Of a DNA stretch of 64,000 nt, positions 3,319 through 43,395 are shown in pieces. The notes under the pieces are model-generated. The model made no database searches, had not been told where the DNA came from, and saw only the letters and a list, made by a program, of their open reading frames with translations. The translations under genes were made by a program, and so were the position numbers. How positions within the stretch are numbered: the first letter of the stretch is position 1; every line of letters starts with the position of its first letter. The stretch covers positions 2,449 to 66,448 of the IMG/VR virus record IMGVR_UViG_3300021399_000161; one strand, given 5' to 3'. This DNA is from a virus.

Positions 3319-3905
3319 GATTTTTGGAAGTATGATTGCAGGTTCGAGTTGAGATTTCTTGAAGTGGTTTTCGAAATGAGATTTTTCCACGAATGTCTGA
3401 CCTGAATTTCGAAATGAGATTTTCCCAGGAGATCTACAATACAGATTTCGAAATGAGATTTCCGCAGGAATTCTGCTTCTGATTTCGATTTGAGATTTTC
3501 AAAGGCGAACCGGTAACCAAATAACGATTTGAGATTTCCTGAAGAACCTGACAAGCGAAAACAGATTTGAGATTCCGCAAAGAACCCGACAATCAAAACC
3601 CGATTTGGGATTCCCGTAGAACCTGGCAAACAAGAGCCGATTTGAGATTTCTAGGGCCGATATTCCATTTGGGATTTCCCGAAGTGAATGTCGATTTGAG
3701 ATTTCCGGAAGTAAACACAAAGTCAAAAATCAAATTGAGATTTTTCGAGGTAAACTCGAAGTCGAAAATCGATTTGAGATTTTTTGGAGCACACTCGAAT
3801 CCAAATTCCATTTGAGATTTTTCAAAGTGCCCCATAAACCCAATTTCCATTTGAGATTTTCGAAAGTAAAACCATACCCAAAATTCGATTTGAGATTTTT
3901 CAAAC
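3319..3905. repeat. Iteron cluster II: about 17 degenerate direct repeats of GATTTGAGATTTYCNNAAG at a period of about 35-40 bp
   Basis: Read directly; variable 14-25 nt spacers; unit lengths are not multiples of 3, so the overlapping ORFs 3567..3815 and 3593..4246 are artefacts. Confidence 0.7.
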
Positions 3906-3923
3906 CACTTGGAGGTGTAAACG

Positions 3924-4483
3924 TGAGAGTTGATATTGTCAATTATTCCGATAACTGGCAGGCCGTCAAGGATGCCGCAATGAACACAATTGGGATTGAG
4001 TCTGGCAAGTACCCTGACAGCAGCTGGAAGTGGAAAATGCTGAAGGCCGAACACAGCCCAATCAGATTGATCGAGCTGACAATTCGAATTGAGGATATCC
4101 CCTATTGGGTTTCGACGCATCTTGTCAGGCACAAAATCGGGGTGGAACATTTCGTCTCCACTCAGCGGACGGACCGCACTGGCATAAACCGAAATGAGTT
4201 GCCACAAAACGCCCCTGTCTGCCACACCATGAGGATAAACGCTCAAGCCCTGATTGCTATGAGCCGGAAACGGTTATGCCATCAGGCCGCACCGGAAACG
4301 CGTTCGGCGTGGTCTCAGGTCATCGCGGCGGTTCGTGAGGTCGAGCCGGAATTGGCCGCTTGCTGTGTTCCGGAATGCATCTATCGCGGCCACTGCCCCG
4401 AACTGAGATGCTGCGGAGCGTTCGGATCTGGCAAGTTCCAACTGAGACGCGCCGCATACATAAACGGAGTCGAGATGTTCTGA
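3924..4483 (+). CDS. thyX: Compact ThyX-like flavin-dependent thymidylate synthase homologue
   Basis: GTG start after GGAGGTG; RHK-X7-S motif (RHKIGVEHFVS) matches the ThyX RHR-X7-S signature; HSP..L.I and INAQALIAMSRKR blocks parallel T. maritima ThyX; Cys-rich C-terminus. Confidence 0.6.
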
Positions 4484-5575
4484 GGACACAGAGACACCCC
4501 GCAGAAGCCCGTCAGGAGGCCACACAGCCCCCGTCAGGCCGTCAGGGTGGATTTTATCCCGCCAACGGTCAGAAACCGTCTGGTGAGCCGCCAGGAGAGC
4601 CGAAGCCCCACACGCGCACCCGCGCGAGTTGCACCGGATTTTTTGAATTTGGGAAATTGAATACAAAAATAAACGCCGGTCAGAAAGTCGATTTTTTTCT
4701 GGCCGGTTTCGATTTTTGGAGATTTTTCTTGCGGAATGTCTGCCGATCTGGTGTTCGGACCTGGCAGCCCGGTCACCCCTTGGTCGGTCTCTGGGCGGCA
4801 CCTGGGATCCGTCAAGGCCCCCGAAAAGCGCCCCTTGCGCCCCTTGGAACCCGTCAAGGGAACCCGGAAGCCATGCCCGCCCCGCTTGAGACCTTCAGAG
4901 GATCCCCGGAAGAGGCCGCAAGCCGCCCTTACATCACTGGCCAGCCCGGAAGGACCTAAACCAGCCGGAAGCCTTGACCGGTCCGGAAGATCCGGAAAGC
5001 CTATAGGATGAGACCGGCAGCACGACAGGCCGCCGGACGCCCTACAGGATGAGGAAAGCACCCACGGCCAGCGCAAGCGGACCGAAAGAGACCCGGAAGC
5101 GCGACAGACCGCCGGAAGCCGCCAGGACTACAGGCAGACCGCCGGAAGAGGCAGACCCGAAAAAACTACAGGCAGACCGCACACCAGGCAGCCACCAAGA
5201 CAGACAGCCGCAAAGGCAGACCGCCGGACCTATAACCCGCCGGACATGGAAACCACGCCCCGCACGATCTGCCGCCGGACATGGTAAGACATCCGAACAA
5301 AACACCAGTAGCCGCCGGACATGATGAGACCAAGACGGCAGGCAAGCCGAAATCCTACTATATATAGAAGGCACCCGGACAGGATCCCCGGAAGCTGTGA
5401 CGGCCTTCTTCATGTCGGCAGATCCGGAAGCCGTGACGGCCTTCTTTCCTGTATGAGATCCCCCGAAAGTGTAAACCCTTCTATAGCAGATCGGAAAAAC
5501 GGAAACGTGAATGCTTTCTATATTATAGAAGCTATTCTTCTGAACTACCGCCCGAAACCTACTTATATATAGAAG

Positions 5576-5782
5576 TCACTCACCACCAGCGCCGGAAGAG
5601 TCCCGCGCGATCTTTTCCGCAATCGCTTCTTTTATATAGGTATTTACCCCTATGCCAGCAGCAGCCGCCGCCGGTTTCAAGATGTTTTCAAAGTAATCTG
5701 CCTGCAGATCTAGCGGCACGCGCTTGTAGTTTTTCGCAGCGTATTTCATAGACGCCCTTTTTTGTGCTTCACTCGTTGCCAA
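5576..5782 (-). CDS. Ribbon-helix-helix (Arc/CopG-like) DNA-binding protein
   Basis: KRVPLDLQADYFENIL...AAGIGVNTYIKEAIAEKI fits the RHH pattern; TTG start 8 nt after GGAGG. Confidence 0.55.
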   Translation of the reverse strand: MATSEAQKRASMKYAAKNYKRVPLDLQADYFENILKPAAAAAGIGVNTYIKEAIAEKIARDSSGAGGE

Positions 5783-35742: not shown

Positions 35743-35778
35743 AGGAAGGGACTGTCTCCCTTCCTATTATATTGATTG
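35743..35778 (+). terminator. Rho-independent terminator
   Basis: AGGAAGGGActgtcTCCCTTCCT hairpin followed by ATTATATTGATT. Confidence 0.55.
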
Positions 35779-35845: not shown

Positions 35846-36349
35846 ATGGCAGATACCACCTATACAGTCAAGAAGATAACAGACCTTGCGGCAAACTCGA
35901 CTGCGAATGATACAGACGTGTACGTCTTAGGCAATCAGGGAACCGCTACCATGAGGAGGATCACATTCAGCACAATTGCGAGTGCGATCCTGAACAAGTT
36001 GGCCAGCTTTTCGTTCAGCAGCTTGACTACATCGAGTAAGAACCTGCCCGGCGCGGTAAATGAATTAAACTCGAAAATGGAGCTGACCCTTGTGACGTAC
36101 ACCGCGCAGTATACATGCGCCGCAAATAACGCGCTGGCAATTACTGACAGCGATTTCGGAATGTCAACACCGTCTGGTTTTACGCCGTGCTGTATTACTC
36201 AGGCAACCACAGGAAATAACAATGTGTTAATCCGTGGATACGGTGTAGGCGTTGGCAATAACGTTTTGATCGTCAGAAACGTGTCATCTTCTTCTGCATC
36301 TGCGACTGCAACAATAAGGGTTCTTTATGTCAAGTATGGGCGGCTATAA
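35846..36349 (+). CDS. tail-fibre tip / receptor-binding protein with switchable C-terminal domain (expressed copy)
   Basis: RBS AGGGAGGG; the C-terminal 93 aa after the NS(K/N) junction at 36066-36075 are homologous to three inverted cassettes at 37595-38460. Confidence 0.65.
   Translation: MADTTYTVKKITDLAANSTANDTDVYVLGNQGTATMRRITFSTIASAILNKLASFSFSSLTTSSKNLPGAVNELNSKMELTLVTYTAQYTCAANNALAITDSDFGMSTPSGFTPCCITQATTGNNNVLIRGYGVGVGNNVLIVRNVSSSSASATATIRVLYVKYGRL
36066..36075 (+). repeat. Shufflon core site TAAACTCGAA within the expressed fibre-tip gene
   Basis: The same 10-mer (or its 11-mer variant) occurs in inverted orientation at the 5' junction of each silent cassette. Confidence 0.6.
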
Positions 36350-36364
36350 AATGGCGGTTTAATT

Positions 36365-36383
36365 CAACCGGTGTTCGGTTTTC
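36365..36383 (+). terminator. weak intrinsic terminator after the fibre-tip gene
   Basis: AACCGgtgttCGGTT followed by TTTT; only a 5-bp stem. Confidence 0.35.
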
Positions 36384-36425
36384 CTGGCCTCTGGGGATGA
36401 TAAACTATCCCCGGAGGTGATAGGA

Positions 36426-37436
36426 ATGAGAGATGCACGGAGCATTATCGCACAAAATGTTCTCGGAACACTACTGAAGCACGACGTCGGCCAAGAAGTG
36501 ATTGACGAAACACAGGCAGCACTGGAGCGACAGCTTGACCGGTATGAAGTTCTACCCCGGTGTACAGAAGTGGCGGTGGTAGATGACAGCGCATTGAAGC
36601 ACCTGAAGGATTTTATCCTCTGCAAGAGGATAGAAGGCCGGTCAGAGCAGACTTTGAAGCGGTACTGGTACGAACTGGAGAAGCTGGTCATGTACTTCCG
36701 CAAGCCACTGTCGGATTACACCACGCAGGATCTACGGGATTACCTGGAGTACAGGAAGCGGAACGCCACATACAGGCAGGAGCTGTCCAAGACTACCCTT
36801 GACGGGATGCGGCGGATATACAGTTCCTTCTTCGCGTGGCTGACGGCAGAACGGATCATCAATTGGAACCCGACACTTGCCGTCCGCCCTATCAAGCACA
36901 AGAGGGCGGTGCGGGTGCCGTACTCCGCCGTTGAGATCCAGAAGCTGAAGGAAGCCTGTCAGACGAAGCGGGATGTGGCTATGGTTGACTGGCTCCTGTC
37001 TACGGGATGCCGTGTCGGGGAGCTGCCGACCGTCTCGGTCAGTGCCATAGACTGGCAGAGAAAAAGCTGTGTCGTGACGGGCAAGGGAGACAAGGAGCGG
37101 GTGGTGTACTTCACGGATGTGACGGCCATGCACCTGTCAGAGTATATAGCAGACCGGGGCAGTCAGAGTGATGCCCTGTTCCTTGGACGATCCGGGAAGC
37201 CTATGCAGATAGGCTCCATCCGTGCGGCAGTGCAGCGGATAGGCAGGCGGGCAGGAGTGGCGAAGGTCTTTCCGCATCGTTTCCGCCATACCTTTGCTAC
37301 GCAGATGTGTGCCAAGATGCCGGTCATGGAAGTGGCGTCCTTGATGGGGCATGAGGATATCAGTACCACACAGATCTACTGCCACGTAGATCCGGTATCT
37401 GTAGCGGCAAACTACCGACAAGCCATGGCGGGCTGA
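36426..37436 (+). CDS. tyrosine site-specific recombinase (Rci/XerD-like), putative shufflon recombinase
   Basis: R...HxxR...Y catalytic layout (RFRHTFATQM, HEDISTTQIYCHV); RBS CCGGAGGTGA; sits between the expressed fibre gene and the inverted cassettes. Confidence 0.85.
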   Translation: MRDARSIIAQNVLGTLLKHDVGQEVIDETQAALERQLDRYEVLPRCTEVAVVDDSALKHLKDFILCKRIEGRSEQTLKRYWYELEKLVMYFRKPLSDYTTQDLRDYLEYRKRNATYRQELSKTTLDGMRRIYSSFFAWLTAERIINWNPTLAVRPIKHKRAVRVPYSAVEIQKLKEACQTKRDVAMVDWLLSTGCRVGELPTVSVSAIDWQRKSCVVTGKGDKERVVYFTDVTAMHLSEYIADRGSQSDALFLGRSGKPMQIGSIRAAVQRIGRRAGVAKVFPHRFRHTFATQMCAKMPVMEVASLMGHEDISTTQIYCHVDPVSVAANYRQAMAG

Positions 37437-37524
37437 CCGGCGGCAACTGAACAGGTTTCAGTACACCGGGGACGGCTCCGGTGTTTTTTGCGTGCCCATA
37501 AGCGCTTGTAATTCAATTGGATCG

Positions 37525-37583
37525 ACTTGGAATAGGCTTGGAATTGACTTGGAATTGACTTGGAATTGACTTGGAAGTCAATT
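37525..37583. repeat. Tandem 11-bp repeat (GACTTGGAATT) in 4-5 copies, ending in the palindrome AATTGACTTGGAAGTCAATT
   Basis: Read directly; lies between the recombinase stop and cassette A. Confidence 0.6.
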
Positions 37584-37594
37584 AAACCGCCATA

Positions 37595-37897
37595 TCAGGC
37601 CATCGCAGAGGTTCTGATCCAGACGATTCCAAGCGTAGCCGTGCCAGATATAGCAGACGAGCCAATGTTTCGGATGCTGAAGGCCGTGCCGCTTGAGGAT
37701 GGCCAACCATTCGCCCAACGGATCAGCACGTTGGGATGCCCGGTATTGATGTTATACAGAGCAAAAGGAGTATACCCTGATATGGAGTCAATCCCCAACA
37801 TGGAGCCTGTAATATTCAAAGCAGCTCCGCCTGCAAGATCACTGTAGGTGTACGTGTATGACTGCCTCTGTACAAGGCCGGACAGGTTCGAGTTTTA
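37595..37897 (-). other. Silent alternative fibre-tip C-terminal cassette A (no start codon; TAA immediately upstream of the junction)
   Basis: Translation ...NSNLSGLVQRQSYTYTY...SGYTPFALYNINTGHPNVLIRW...SIRNIGSSAISGTATLGIVWIRTS aligns with the C-terminus of the 35846 gene; junction TAAAACTCGAA. Confidence 0.6.
37887..37897 (-). repeat. Shufflon core site (cassette A junction), inverted
   Basis: Plus-strand TTCGAGTTTTA equals TAAAACTCGAA on the minus strand. Confidence 0.55.
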
Positions 37898-38157
37898 TAT
37901 TATGACTCCAACCACAGTTCCAGCTGATGCTGTGTTTGTGATCGTGGCTGTCGTTCCACTCACCGACACGGTGTAATTAGATGCCGGGATTACCGGATTG
38001 ATGTTGTTCGGGATGAGAATATACAGACCACGAAATCCCGCCACACTGTTGTGACCAGTGAGCAGGATACGATAGGTCTGTTCACTCCCGAAGTCATATT
38101 GGCCCGTTGCTCCCTTTGCGACCGACACTGTGATCCTGGCGTCCTTCGAGTTTATAT
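37895..38157 (-). other. Silent alternative fibre-tip C-terminal cassette B
   Basis: ...DINSKDARITVSV...DFGSEQTYRILLTGHNSV...; junction ATAAACTCGAAG. Confidence 0.5.
38145..38154 (-). repeat. Shufflon core site (cassette B junction), inverted
   Basis: Plus-strand TTCGAGTTTA. Confidence 0.55.
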
Positions 38158-38460
38158 CACTCCTGAGCGAACATAAATCACGCTTACAGCAGCTGTTGCA
38201 GTTACGCTTGCATTGGATATATTGCGGCAAATCAGGATTGACCCGGAAGCAGCGTTGCCATAAAAAGCCTGGAGAAGAACAACATTGCTGCCGGTCGTGG
38301 CTCTCGCAAGTGCTATCGGCGTGTATCCACTCGGGGCTGATATGCCGAAGTTGTTATATGTCAGCCACACGGTGTTGCCGGAACCGACAGTATATTCGGC
38401 TGTGTAGCTCACGATCTTGAACAGCTCCGCCAGGTTCGAGTTTATTTTGTTCCCCATCAA
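38152..38460 (-). other. Alternative fibre-tip C-terminal cassette C (has ATGATG but no good RBS)
   Basis: MMGNKINSNLAELFKIVSYTAEYT...APSGYTPIALARATTGSNVVLLQAFYG...ILICRNISNASVTATAAVSVIYVRSG is strongly homologous to the expressed C-terminus. Confidence 0.6.
38435..38444 (-). repeat. Shufflon core site (cassette C junction), inverted
   Basis: Plus-strand TTCGAGTTTA; flank CAGGTTCGAGTTT shared with cassette A. Confidence 0.55.
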
Positions 38461-38524
38461 CTAGGCTGCATGGCCTTTTCACATCAGACACCATAGTAAA
38501 TCACACCATAGGAGGGCGCCGCCA

Positions 38525-41747: not shown

Positions 41748-42340
41748 TTTTTTGCCGTCCAGTGATGAGGGCGGCTTTTTTGATGGGCGAATATGCATGG
41801 TTACATGAACAAAATAACCTCAAAATGATGGCATCAGGCCCCAAAGGGTAGTGGGTAAGGGGTCACCTGTTGTCTTTTCATTTTTTGACATGTAACCAAC
41901 CCGCATGGTTACGCGGTTTTTCGCCTGTTGTCTTTTGTTGTCTACTAGGTCAAAATAAGCACTTTTAGGGGTAAAATCTTGCCTTTTTCGGATAAAAGAA
42001 AAACCCGGAAATCCTTGTACCTACGCGGAAAACTCGGATTTTCGGGTGTTGTCTAAAAGTCGGGGTAGTGGGATTTGAACACAAATGAGAAACCCCAAAA
42101 CCCGCATAAACACGCGGTTTTTCGCATATCATCTGTTGTCTTTTGTTGTCTCGTCAAAATTGCGGTTACATAATCATGTAATCACGTGTAACCAGACAGC
42201 TTCATTTCCTGCCTTGTATGGCCTACTTTCAAGGCCATTCCCATCATGTGATCACGACATCGGAAGTATCGTATTCCGGGAAAACGGAAGGCGTGGTTAC
42301 ATTTCTGTTGTCTTTTCCCACTACCCCTAAAACATCACTA
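41748..42340. other. attP region: arm-type direct repeats (CTGTTGTCTTTT x4-5, ACGCGGTTTTTCGC x2-3, GGTTAC x5) and a tRNA 3'-end-like fragment
   Basis: Read directly; 42062-42080 GGGGTAGTGGGATTTGAAC is the reverse complement of a tRNA T-loop plus acceptor 3' strand (TTCAAATCCCACTACCCC); it lies adjacent to the 3' end of the integrase gene. Confidence 0.6.
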
Positions 42341-43395
42341 TCTTTGGTGCTGATAGTAATATCTTTACTTTCCCCAGTGATAAGCCCCGAGAAGTGATCC
42401 GACATCTTATTCGAATACTTATCCGCCGCAATGTCAATCTTGTTCTGGTACACAGCCTTCATGACCGGCGAACCATGACGCCAGCCGCCGAATTCTGCCA
42501 GGTAGATGTCCGGGATCCCCAACACAGCCCCAATCGATGCGTAGTAATGCCGCAGGTCATGGAACCTGATATCTATCCCCAGCTTGTTCCTGAGACGGTT
42601 GAACCGATGTGTCACCCTGTCAGGATGGGAGAGAGTCACGTATGCATCATCCGGACCGTCACCGATCAGGTCAATCACCTGTTGGGGGAGCAGTACGCTG
42701 CGGATAGACTCGGATGTCTTCGGAAAATCTTTGTACACGAAGCCGTCCATGGACTGCACCATGTCGGCATGAACATGGGCGATGCGTCCATCGATATCCT
42801 TATGCTTCAGGGCACATATCTCTCCTCTCCGCATAGACCCGAAAGCCGCCAGTGCGATACACACCTTCAGCTCCTCACCGGCCTGCGTGAACAGTTCCTT
42901 TACGTCATCATCTGATGGAGCAGACCTTCTCGCCTTCGGTTTCTTCGGCAGGGTAGTGCGGAATACTGCATCGGGCCGGAACATATATATGGCCGATGTG
43001 AGCAGTCCATAGATATTCCCGATGCTCTTAGCTGATACCTTCCCGACAAGGCTGGCAACGAAGAGTTGCATATCCTCCGTTGTCAGGTTATACACCAGTT
43101 TATCCTCGATGCGCCCGAAGTGGGTGTTCTGCAAGGATCTGTATGACCTGATGGAAGAGGGGGAGAGTATCTTTTCCTTGGAATAGATGTATCTCTCTAT
43201 GGCTTCTCCCACTGTGATCTCCCTTATGTCTCCCGGCTTTCCCACCTCATCCAGGTGCCTGCCTGCCCTTATTTCCGCCTCCTTCTTCGTCTTCCCGGAA
43301 ATGGCAGTATATACCTTCTTCCCGGTCTTCTTGTCGATGCCGTCATAGACGATCACGCGCCAATTCCCTGACGGCTGTCTTTTTGCAGTTGCCAT
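42244..43395 (-). CDS. int: tyrosine integrase (phage integrase family)
   Basis: FHDLRHYYAS and AVYQNK catalytic Arg/His/Tyr pattern; N-terminal SAM-like domain; 383 aa; arm repeats continue into its 3' end. Confidence 0.85.
   Translation of the reverse strand: MATAKRQPSGNWRVIVYDGIDKKTGKKVYTAISGKTKKEAEIRAGRHLDEVGKPGDIREITVGEAIERYIYSKEKILSPSSIRSYRSLQNTHFGRIEDKLVYNLTTEDMQLFVASLVGKVSAKSIGNIYGLLTSAIYMFRPDAVFRTTLPKKPKARRSAPSDDDVKELFTQAGEELKVCIALAAFGSMRRGEICALKHKDIDGRIAHVHADMVQSMDGFVYKDFPKTSESIRSVLLPQQVIDLIGDGPDDAYVTLSHPDRVTHRFNRLRNKLGIDIRFHDLRHYYASIGAVLGIPDIYLAEFGGWRHGSPVMKAVYQNKIDIAADKYSNKMSDHFSGLITGESKDITISTKDSDVLGVVGKDNRNVTTPSVFPEYDTSDVVIT

Follow-up and report, generated by a model that had tools for sequence, protein, structure and literature searches.

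Can a phage exchange the tip of its tail by inverting its own DNA? The question is raised by a locus in a stretch of viral DNA of 64,000 nt (the window; positions 2,449-66,448 of IMG/VR record IMGVR_UViG_3300021399_000161, with all coordinates based on the window). Within the late operon, between an 85-aa open reading frame (ORF) and a holin gene, lie in order a 167-aa gene for a putative tail-tip protein, a gene for a 336-aa tyrosine recombinase, and three contiguous segments on the minus strand. A prediction made earlier from the sequence alone (the original prediction) held that inversion between a site in the expressed gene and any of the inverted sites in the segments would fuse a constant N-terminus of ~74 aa to a new C-terminus. 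This mechanism is supported by the reading frame, the conservation of the sites, their uniformity within each locus, the reuse of cassettes, purifying selection, and the isomers found in a relative; for this phage itself the switch is inferred. Very probably the locus, in the late/tail region, is a shufflon: a site-specific inversion system with several cassettes. Its principal elements are as follows.

35846..36067, plus strand: constant N-terminal segment of the expressed gene, aa 1-74, ending ...AVNEL; part of an ORF whose N-terminus is conserved in relatives
36064..36075, plus strand: site a, ATTAAACTCGAA, codons L-N-S-K inside the expressed gene; fits the family consensus, with the 10-mer at 36066
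36068..36349, plus strand: expressed C-terminal cassette, 93 aa and stop
36426..37436, plus strand: Xer-like tyrosine recombinase, 336 aa, predicted invertase (PF00589 and a SAM-like N-domain), inside the invertible DNA
37595..37894, minus strand (open codons 37598-37894): silent cassette A, 99 codons and stop, of the same fold family as the expressed C-terminus; no start codon
37887..37897, minus strand: site A, TAAAACTCGAA
37895..38152, minus strand (open codons 37898-38152): silent cassette B, 85 codons and stop, of a different C-terminal type
38145..38154, minus strand: site B, TAAACTCGAA
38152..38442, minus strand (open codons 38155-38442): silent cassette C, 96 codons and stop, closest to the expressed C-terminus
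38435..38444, minus strand: site C, TAAACTCGAA, bounding the invertible region on the outside

The 167-aa ORF lies where it had been placed, at 35846..36349 on the plus strand, and each of the three contiguous cassettes is open in the frame set by the core (AAC-TCG), for 99, 85 and 96 codons respectively. Any of the three inversions keeps the frame, with predicted products of 173, 159 and 170 aa for A, B and C respectively, beside the 167 aa of the present gene. Cassette A has no start codon and carries a stop directly upstream of its junction, as had been described; this stop is the TAA of cassette B (37895-37897). The stop of B thus abuts the core of A, and that of C falls inside the core of B.

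The expressed C-terminus had been described as homologous to all three segments. By BLASTP this holds for cassette C (3e-25, 44% identity) and cassette A (3e-13, 37% identity); the comparison with B was not significant (E = 0.11). We nevertheless count B as a cassette because it has the site and the open frame, and because a sequence 79-83% identical to it is found fused to the constant N-terminus elsewhere: in P0006 (L010) a diverged N-terminus is joined to this C-terminus via the AAACTCGAA core. A similar break is seen in four further relatives (P0002-P0005), where the N-terminal ~76 aa are 80-83% identical to those of the window up to ...AVNELN(T/S), and the C-termini beyond are unrelated.

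A single 10-nt core had been reported at all four sites. The 10-mer TAAACTCGAA is indeed exact in the expressed gene, B and C. Site A reads TAAAACTCGAA and differs by one base, so that only the 9-mer AAACTCGAA is common to the four sites. In the window TAAACTCGAA occurs four times where 0.09 occurrences are expected, and none of 100 shuffled sequences reached four. One of these exact copies (3751-3760, plus strand) lies 32 kb from the shufflon in direct orientation. Its surroundings are low in GC and rich in short inverted and direct repeats (…ATTGAGATTTTTCGAGGTAAACTCGAAGTCGAAAATCGATTTGAGATTTTT…); given the distance, the orientation and the AT-rich repeat region, it is probably there by chance.

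Is there an enzyme at the locus that might act on such sites? The gene at 36426..37436, between the expressed gene and the cassettes, does encode a tyrosine recombinase as had been proposed, matching the Pfam family Phage_integrase (PF00589) at 4.8e-35. The Pfam comparison finds a SAM-like core-binding N-domain and no arm-binding domain, and the catalytic residues R196, K220, H284, R287, H309 and Y318 are invariant in 20 relatives. Judged on these features, the protein is an intact, armless tyrosine recombinase. Its best match in the Protein Data Bank (PDB) is XerA (5hxy, 1e-24). An identity as XerC, XerD or XerA was rejected, for while the superfamily and domain layout are shared, every NCBIfam score falls below the curated equivalog cut-off (XerA-like 207 against 220, XerC 168 against 335, XerD 145 against 330). 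We also rejected the possibility that it is the lysogeny integrase of the phage, as it has no arm domain, sits between the tail-tip gene and the holin, and the canonical place is taken by another integrase. In these sequence features it looks like an invertase rather than a phage integrase.

If the sites are used, they should be conserved beyond this phage. Contigs with recombinases 63-92% identical to that of the window carry the same design on different backbones, with the following sites.

L005: two plus-strand and four minus-strand sites; siphophage, small tip gene
L008: one plus-strand and two minus-strand sites; small tip gene
L013-L017: four plus-strand and two minus-strand sites; the constant part is a 1015-aa Prophage_tail protein
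L012: one plus-strand and one minus-strand site; 139-aa gene after myophage baseplate genes; core AAACACAAG
L149: two plus-strand and seven minus-strand sites; (T)AAACTCGAA core as in the window

Counted from the core, the open frame of each cassette in these loci runs for 75-195 codons, and none has its own start codon. We aligned 28 sites from five loci (the window with 4, L005 with 6, L008 with 3, L013 with 6 and L149 with 9; the recombinases of these relatives are 63-84% identical to that of the window), giving the consensus (A/T)T(A/T)AAAC(A/T)CGAA with flanks that are not conserved. At the fifth position, the variable one, all sites of the window and L149 have T, and all those of L005, L008 and L013 have A. 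Such agreement inside each locus, with differences from one locus to the next, is what is expected of sites that must match each other for strand exchange. Coding constraint does not demand it, since both Ser and Thr are tolerated at the codon concerned. L012, whose recombinase is the closest at 92% identity, has its variant core AAACACAAG at both its cassettes.

The cassettes themselves are shared between these phages. Those silent in L005 at 9275(-) and L013 at 6849(-) resemble the expressed cassette of L009, and the silent L008 cassette at 2407(-) resembles the expressed cassettes of L012 and of the window. Going by these similarities, types of cassette kept silent by one phage are in use in another. 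The L005 9275(-) and L013 6849(-) sequences, silent in both loci, differ with dN = 0.05 and dS = 0.39. The ratio of ~0.13 indicates that these two silent cassettes are translated at least part of the time.

Some relatives have lost the arrangement or never had it. In L004 (6001-6552) and L011 (160-669) the tip gene has a single fixed C-terminus followed directly by the lysis module, with neither recombinase nor cassettes; the coding sequence of L004 retains AAACACGAA. The recombinase and the cassettes therefore occur together, as a module gained or lost as a unit. Among contigs taken as one genome per species, the nearest recombinases are 43-46% identical to that of the window, and several of these have, just ahead of the recombinase gene, two TAAACACGAA cores in opposite orientation (plus/minus) with 300-830 bp between them; from its layout this pair is a simple two-cassette switch. 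At 35-42% identity, relatives have four sites arranged as (+,-) recombinase (+,-), with other core sequences. One of these loci (L065) was considered as a Type I restriction hsdS locus and the identity rejected, as Pfam places it between fibre genes (collagen-like, Phage_fiber_rpt) on one side and a holin with a GH25 lysin on the other.

The most direct support for the mechanism comes from a relative in which the DNA has been caught in more than one arrangement. The P0058 recombinase is 48% identical to that of the window and lies in a myophage-type prophage, between a gene of ~202 codons and further cassettes that are followed by a holin, i.e., in the same layout. Contigs from different samples share 99.9-100% DNA identity, yet three segments are inverted or exchanged exactly at the cores. 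In L140 coordinates these segments are 3391-3946, 3933-5023 (holding the recombinase gene) and 5010-5658, and their overlaps of 14-18 nt correspond to four cores TAAACACGGA(G/T)A in alternating orientation. In consequence the tip gene runs on after ...RQLNT into one of three different in-frame C-termini, for products of 203, 202 and 219 aa. By sequence comparison the junction motif L-N-T and the core TAAACACGGA are homologous to L-N-S and TAAACTCGAA of the window. These isomers are the strongest support for the mechanism, and they concern the relative, not the phage of the window.

Mixed inversion states may also have left traces in assemblies. In two scaffolds from ENA, L134 and L135, the recombinase segment is duplicated and the cores number six rather than four; the simplest explanation is an artefact of assembling mixed inversion states. 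For many relatives of the recombinase the sole sources are contigs of 1.0-2.0 kb with little beyond the gene, and for P0058 196 of 245 index blocks are shorter than 2 kb. This fits breakage of assemblies at the flanking inverted repeats; the median contig of the collection is also short. One contig, L152, runs on into unrelated membrane-protein-like sequence and may be chimeric.

How would the switch work in the phage of the window? The recombinase would recombine the core of 9-12 nt at site a on the plus strand with the inverted core of A, B or C on the minus strand. Each event would invert all the DNA between the two sites, the recombinase gene included, and codons 1-74 would become joined in frame to a different C-terminal β-sandwich domain. 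The displaced domain would in turn become a silent inverted cassette. The predicted junctions read GGTAAATGAATTAAACTCGAACCTGGCGGAGCTG for a × C, GGTAAATGAATTAAACTCGAAGGACGCCAGGATC for a × B and GGTAAATGAATTAAACTCGAACCTGTCCGGCCTT for a × A, with GGGGAACAAAATAAACTCGAAAATGGAGCTGACC as the reciprocal of a × C. A population of phage or lysogens would then hold virions with several adsorption specificities. We infer that in this phage these sites are the substrate of the recombinase, that the variable domain binds a receptor, and that host range changes.

The proposed function of the domain draws on its surroundings. The late operon runs through a 2295-aa ORF of tape-measure size, a DUF6711-type protein and a 1209-aa tail protein matching PHROG 6616 (4.6e-147) to the 85-aa ORF; the tip gene follows these, and downstream of the locus are a Dp-1-type holin and a multi-domain endolysin. 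Given this position, and the fusion of the same kind of cassette to the end of a Prophage_tail protein in L013, the variable C-terminal domain is most likely a host receptor binder. Homologues of the tip protein are few, and it had no match in Pfam or PHROG; a Foldseek search of the PDB gave no match at E < 0.02.

Several observations weigh against the proposed switch, the first being that the support for a receptor-binding role consists of synteny and a modest structural match, with nothing significant from Foldseek against the PDB. Secondly, cassette B has no detectable relation to the other cassettes. Thirdly, cassettes A, B and C are mutually direct repeats, and their deletion would need some means of avoidance; the same question has been raised for the Rin system of bifidobacterial prophages (PMC6109161). 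Fourthly, we found no isomer of the window phage. A megablast query of 9.3 kb matched nothing among GenBank phages, and protein-pattern scans of IMG/VR with the recombinase and the tip protein gave no relatives. An IMG/VR scan for ATGAATTAAACWCGAA returned 36 loci, all due to chance and none with a homologue of the recombinase or the N-terminus, and two scans of JGI metagenomes with a 20-nt left arm plus the core gave 0 matches and 5 chance matches. The closest relatives in the searched collections have a recombinase of 92% identity and an N-terminus of 80-83% identity. Lastly, the five distinct loci that make up the closest group (63-92% recombinase identity, the window included) all have the recombinase gene on the strand of the tail genes. 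Inversion between a and a cassette flips the recombinase, so that unbiased, frequent switching would give about half each way; five out of five would be expected by chance with a probability of ~0.03-0.06. A single arrangement is likewise found across samples in L013-L017 (five samples), L005-L007 (three) and L149-L151 (three).

Do these observations mean that the shufflon has stopped? The missing isomers, the constant orientation and the identical arrangements across samples would all be explained by a system that arose by inversion and is now essentially static, with cassettes that are passive and change on evolutionary time scales only. We consider such a fossil or near-frozen state unlikely. 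The recombinase still has a complete ORF and an invariant catalytic set, perfect conservation of the core extends to four of four sites, and purifying selection acts on silent cassettes. The related P0058 system demonstrably flips in nature, and metagenome assemblies give the majority arrangement only, so that minority isomers would be hidden. The constant orientation of the recombinase could possibly reflect rare switching, selection of one orientation, or a reset via the pair of repeats b and c described below.

A second explanation leaves the cassettes mobile and takes the recombinase out of the process. The enzyme would have another job, such as Xer-like multimer resolution, integration, or mobilization of its own module with the 14-nt repeat, and cassettes would be swapped by homologous recombination at NELN(S/T). 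Its best family matches are indeed Xer recombinases, and three unrelated tail backgrounds contain it together with its flanking repeat. Two cultured phages of Clostridia, Clostridium phage phiCp-D (L001, 4917-5894) and Terrisporobacter phage TPELB_ph1 (L002, 4824-5819), carry a 31-34% identical recombinase, annotated as 'integrase', in the equivalent position, with the last tail gene on one side and the holin on the other, and without cassettes: a k-mer screen of both found no cassette array or repeated sites, and there is no room for cassettes. TPELB_ph1 has a separate large integrase too. We nevertheless regard this explanation as very unlikely. The Xer equivalog scores all lie below their cut-offs, and homologous exchange leaves unexplained the stacks of inverted cassettes that lack a start and are headed by the core, the base that is uniform within a locus and variable between loci, and the 99.9%-identical P0058 isomers with breakpoints at the cores.

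That the minus-strand segments are independently expressed small genes (alternative tip subunits or chaperones), as might be suggested by a mechanical ORF list that has ORFs with TTG starts over A (74 aa), B (111 aa) and C (102 aa), is scarcely credible, since for A the homology and the core begin upstream of the TTG with a stop directly before the core, a promoter scan of the minus strand over 37500-38500 gave no promoter-like site, the segments are oriented against the late operon, and relatives carry the same sequences as in-frame 3′ ends of the tip gene. Diversification of the type generated by diversity-generating retroelements was also set aside, as the cassettes are discrete and the locus contains neither a reverse transcriptase nor a template repeat.

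Having argued for a shufflon, we turn to a feature absent from the original prediction. The recombinase gene is bracketed by a perfect 14-nt inverted repeat, ATGGCGGTTTAATT / AATTAAACCGCCAT, in a region containing further elements.

36351..36364, minus strand: element b, reading AATTAAACCGCCAT on the minus strand (ATGGCGGTTTAATT on the plus), directly after the stop codon of the expressed gene
36386..36419, plus strand: hairpin in which an anti-Shine-Dalgarno (anti-SD) stretch is paired with the ribosome-binding site (RBS) GGAGGTG of the recombinase; RNAalifold over six loci gives 14 pairs, 2 compensatory
37463..37494, plus strand: intrinsic terminator after the recombinase gene, its stem sequence kept in L005, L008, L012 and L013
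37521..37583, plus strand: 4-5 tandem copies of the 11-nt unit TTGGAATTGAC, downstream of the recombinase terminator and abutting element c
37580..37593, plus strand: element c, AATTAAACCGCCAT, directly after the stop codon of cassette A

A b-type element is in the matching position in L005, L008, L012, L013 and L149. Its sequence varies, as ..CCGTCAT in L005, ..CAGCCAT in L012, ..CCGCTAT-like in L008 and L013, and AATTAAACCACCGTTT in L149. Within the window, L005, L012 and L149 elements b and c are identical, and in L008 and L013 there are one or two differences; the arms differ between loci. Elements b and c read AATTAAAC-CGCCAT, having TTAAAC in common with the cassette cores and a different right half, from which it follows that each should have the other as its sole partner in recombination. 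L153, another relative, departs in sequence from L149 directly after element c, and in the P0058 relative a segment holding the recombinase alone, bounded by full cores at the equivalent positions, is found in both orientations.

It is possible, though we would not count on it, that b and c are a second class of site by which the recombinase gene is separately invertible, and that together with the RBS hairpin and the TGGAA repeats they make this a two-tier, self-regulating shufflon. A b × c flip (predicted junction CTATAAAATGGCGGTTTAATTGACTTCC) would reset or toggle the orientation of the recombinase with respect to late transcription, leaving the tail tip unchanged. The constant co-orientation of the recombinase with the tail genes in the closest group, despite a variable distribution of cassettes, is offered in favour of such a module. 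The hairpin, with anti-SD bases of CC(T/U)C type, suggests as modelled that translation of the invertase is kept low. TGGAA motifs ~11 nt apart are found at the equivalent place in L005, L012 and L013, and the TTGGAATTGAC repeat may be an array for binding an accessory protein.

How new is such a system? The original prediction implied novelty, as an R64-like arrangement in a phage where serine invertases are the classical agents. This was overstated, since phage shufflons driven by tyrosine invertases and acting on receptor-binding proteins have been described since 2018 (PMC6109161, PMC8778435, PMC13596623). The Rin shufflon of Bifidobacterium breve and B. longum prophages was reported as the first phage-encoded invertase of the tyrosine family (Mavrich et al., 2018; PMC6109161). 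Its parts are a constant Rc, variable Rv cassettes and 11-bp rix repeats, with isoforms in both prophage and virion DNA (PMC6109161), and a rin shufflon has also been reported in Eggerthella lenta prophages (PMC8778435). Like the window locus, Rin has a phage-encoded, armless recombinase of Xer type (XerD-like in Rin), with a separate integrase elsewhere (λ-type in the Rin phage), a constant 5′ part of a receptor-binding or tail-tip gene with several variable 3′ cassettes lacking a start, and a short asymmetric repeat (~11 bp) at the head of each cassette, with crossover inside coding sequence. The two differ in host (Actinobacteria for Rin, Clostridia for the window) and in core, the rix sequence being TTCCCTAACCC as against (A/T)T(A/T)AAAC(A/T)CGAA for the window family. 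Moreover, rin lies at the outer edge of its array, whereas the window recombinase is placed between the expressed gene and the cassettes, would be inverted with every switch, and has a flanking repeat of its own. The tip proteins are unrelated, and the recombinases are likened here by description (armless, Xer-type).

The BV01-like phages of Phocaeicola vulgatus have an active multi-cassette tail-fibre shufflon, with all configurations present in reads (PMC13596623, a 2026 preprint). They share with the window locus multi-cassette inversion over the distal end of a tail gene (a tail-fibre gene in BV01), a recombinase at the locus, and short directional motifs (10 bp in BV01). They differ in having a Bacteroidota host, the motif TGGGAGAACT, a recombinase outside the array, and cassettes described as non-homologous. 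Gene-altering inversions in tail-fibre genes have also been catalogued by systematic surveys (PMC9881135, PMC5903667).

The Gin, Cin, Min and Pin systems (Mu, P1, p15B and e14) achieve the same outcome, alternative tail-fibre C-termini by inversion, and Min is also multi-cassette. These are serine invertases with a Fis-dependent enhancer, whereas the sole recombinase at the window locus is of the tyrosine type (PF00589). The Rci/sfx/pilV shufflon of R64 (IncI1) resembles the window locus in its tyrosine recombinase, its multiple inversions at short asymmetric sites and its C-terminal swaps of an adhesin-like tip. It acts on a conjugative-pilus gene of a plasmid with rci outside the shufflon, and the window recombinase scores best with Xer models, not Rci. 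To our knowledge neither the sfx sites nor the pilV target of R64 resemble their counterparts in the window in sequence. Tyrosine recombinases situated between an expressed gene and silent inverted partial copies are a feature of certain phase-variable Type I restriction hsdS loci (e.g., pneumococcal ivr/CreX). There the target is a DNA-specificity subunit, not a virion protein, and hsdS was found in none of the related loci checked by Pfam. Our literature searches found no description of this Clostridia/Lachnospiraceae family, its core, or an embedded, separately bracketed recombinase. The locus thus adds to a known functional kind a member from a phage whose host is probably of Lachnospiraceae type, distinguished by a recombinase that lies within the invertible DNA and has its own second inverted repeat.

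The principle, already set by Rin and the older serine-invertase systems, is unchanged; the consequences lie elsewhere. For gut phages of uncultured Clostridia the chief unknown is host range, and in many temperate phages of Lachnospiraceae-type hosts a conserved L-N-S/T junction is backed by 2-9 alternative tail-tip domains, so that one assembled genome under-reports the adsorption repertoire. Assemblies may break or be mis-joined at such loci, as seen in the scaffolds with a duplicated recombinase and the contigs with the recombinase alone. The short conserved core is a simple handle with which to find such loci and to count isoforms in existing metagenomic reads, and the compact, swappable domains of ~90 aa are candidate parts for phage retargeting.

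Two further features bear on the setting of the locus.

35743-35765: strong stem-loop AGGAAGGGAC…GTCCCTTCCT between the 85-aa ORF and the tip gene, terminator-like on both strands in a scan
42244-43395, minus strand: second tyrosine recombinase, 383 aa, with a weak match to Arm-DNA-bind_4 (E 2.6e-4, below the Pfam cut-off), past the lysis genes

The second recombinase is, by its usual position, likely to be the lysogeny integrase, which would make the phage temperate. In the relative L004 an integrase and a CI-like repressor are found at the equivalent place, after the lysin. The carrier is probably a temperate siphophage of a gut Clostridia host of Lachnospiraceae type, since the nearest recombinases in the one-genome-per-species contigs lie in metagenome-assembled genomes of Lachnospiraceae and in Parablautia sp. 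Marseille-Q6255. Because of the stem-loop, the tip gene and the recombinase may form a transcription unit of their own. Finally, the contigs of L013-L017 all end 51-100 nt past the outermost site, an ambiguous sign of heterogeneity since a shared lysis module begins there.

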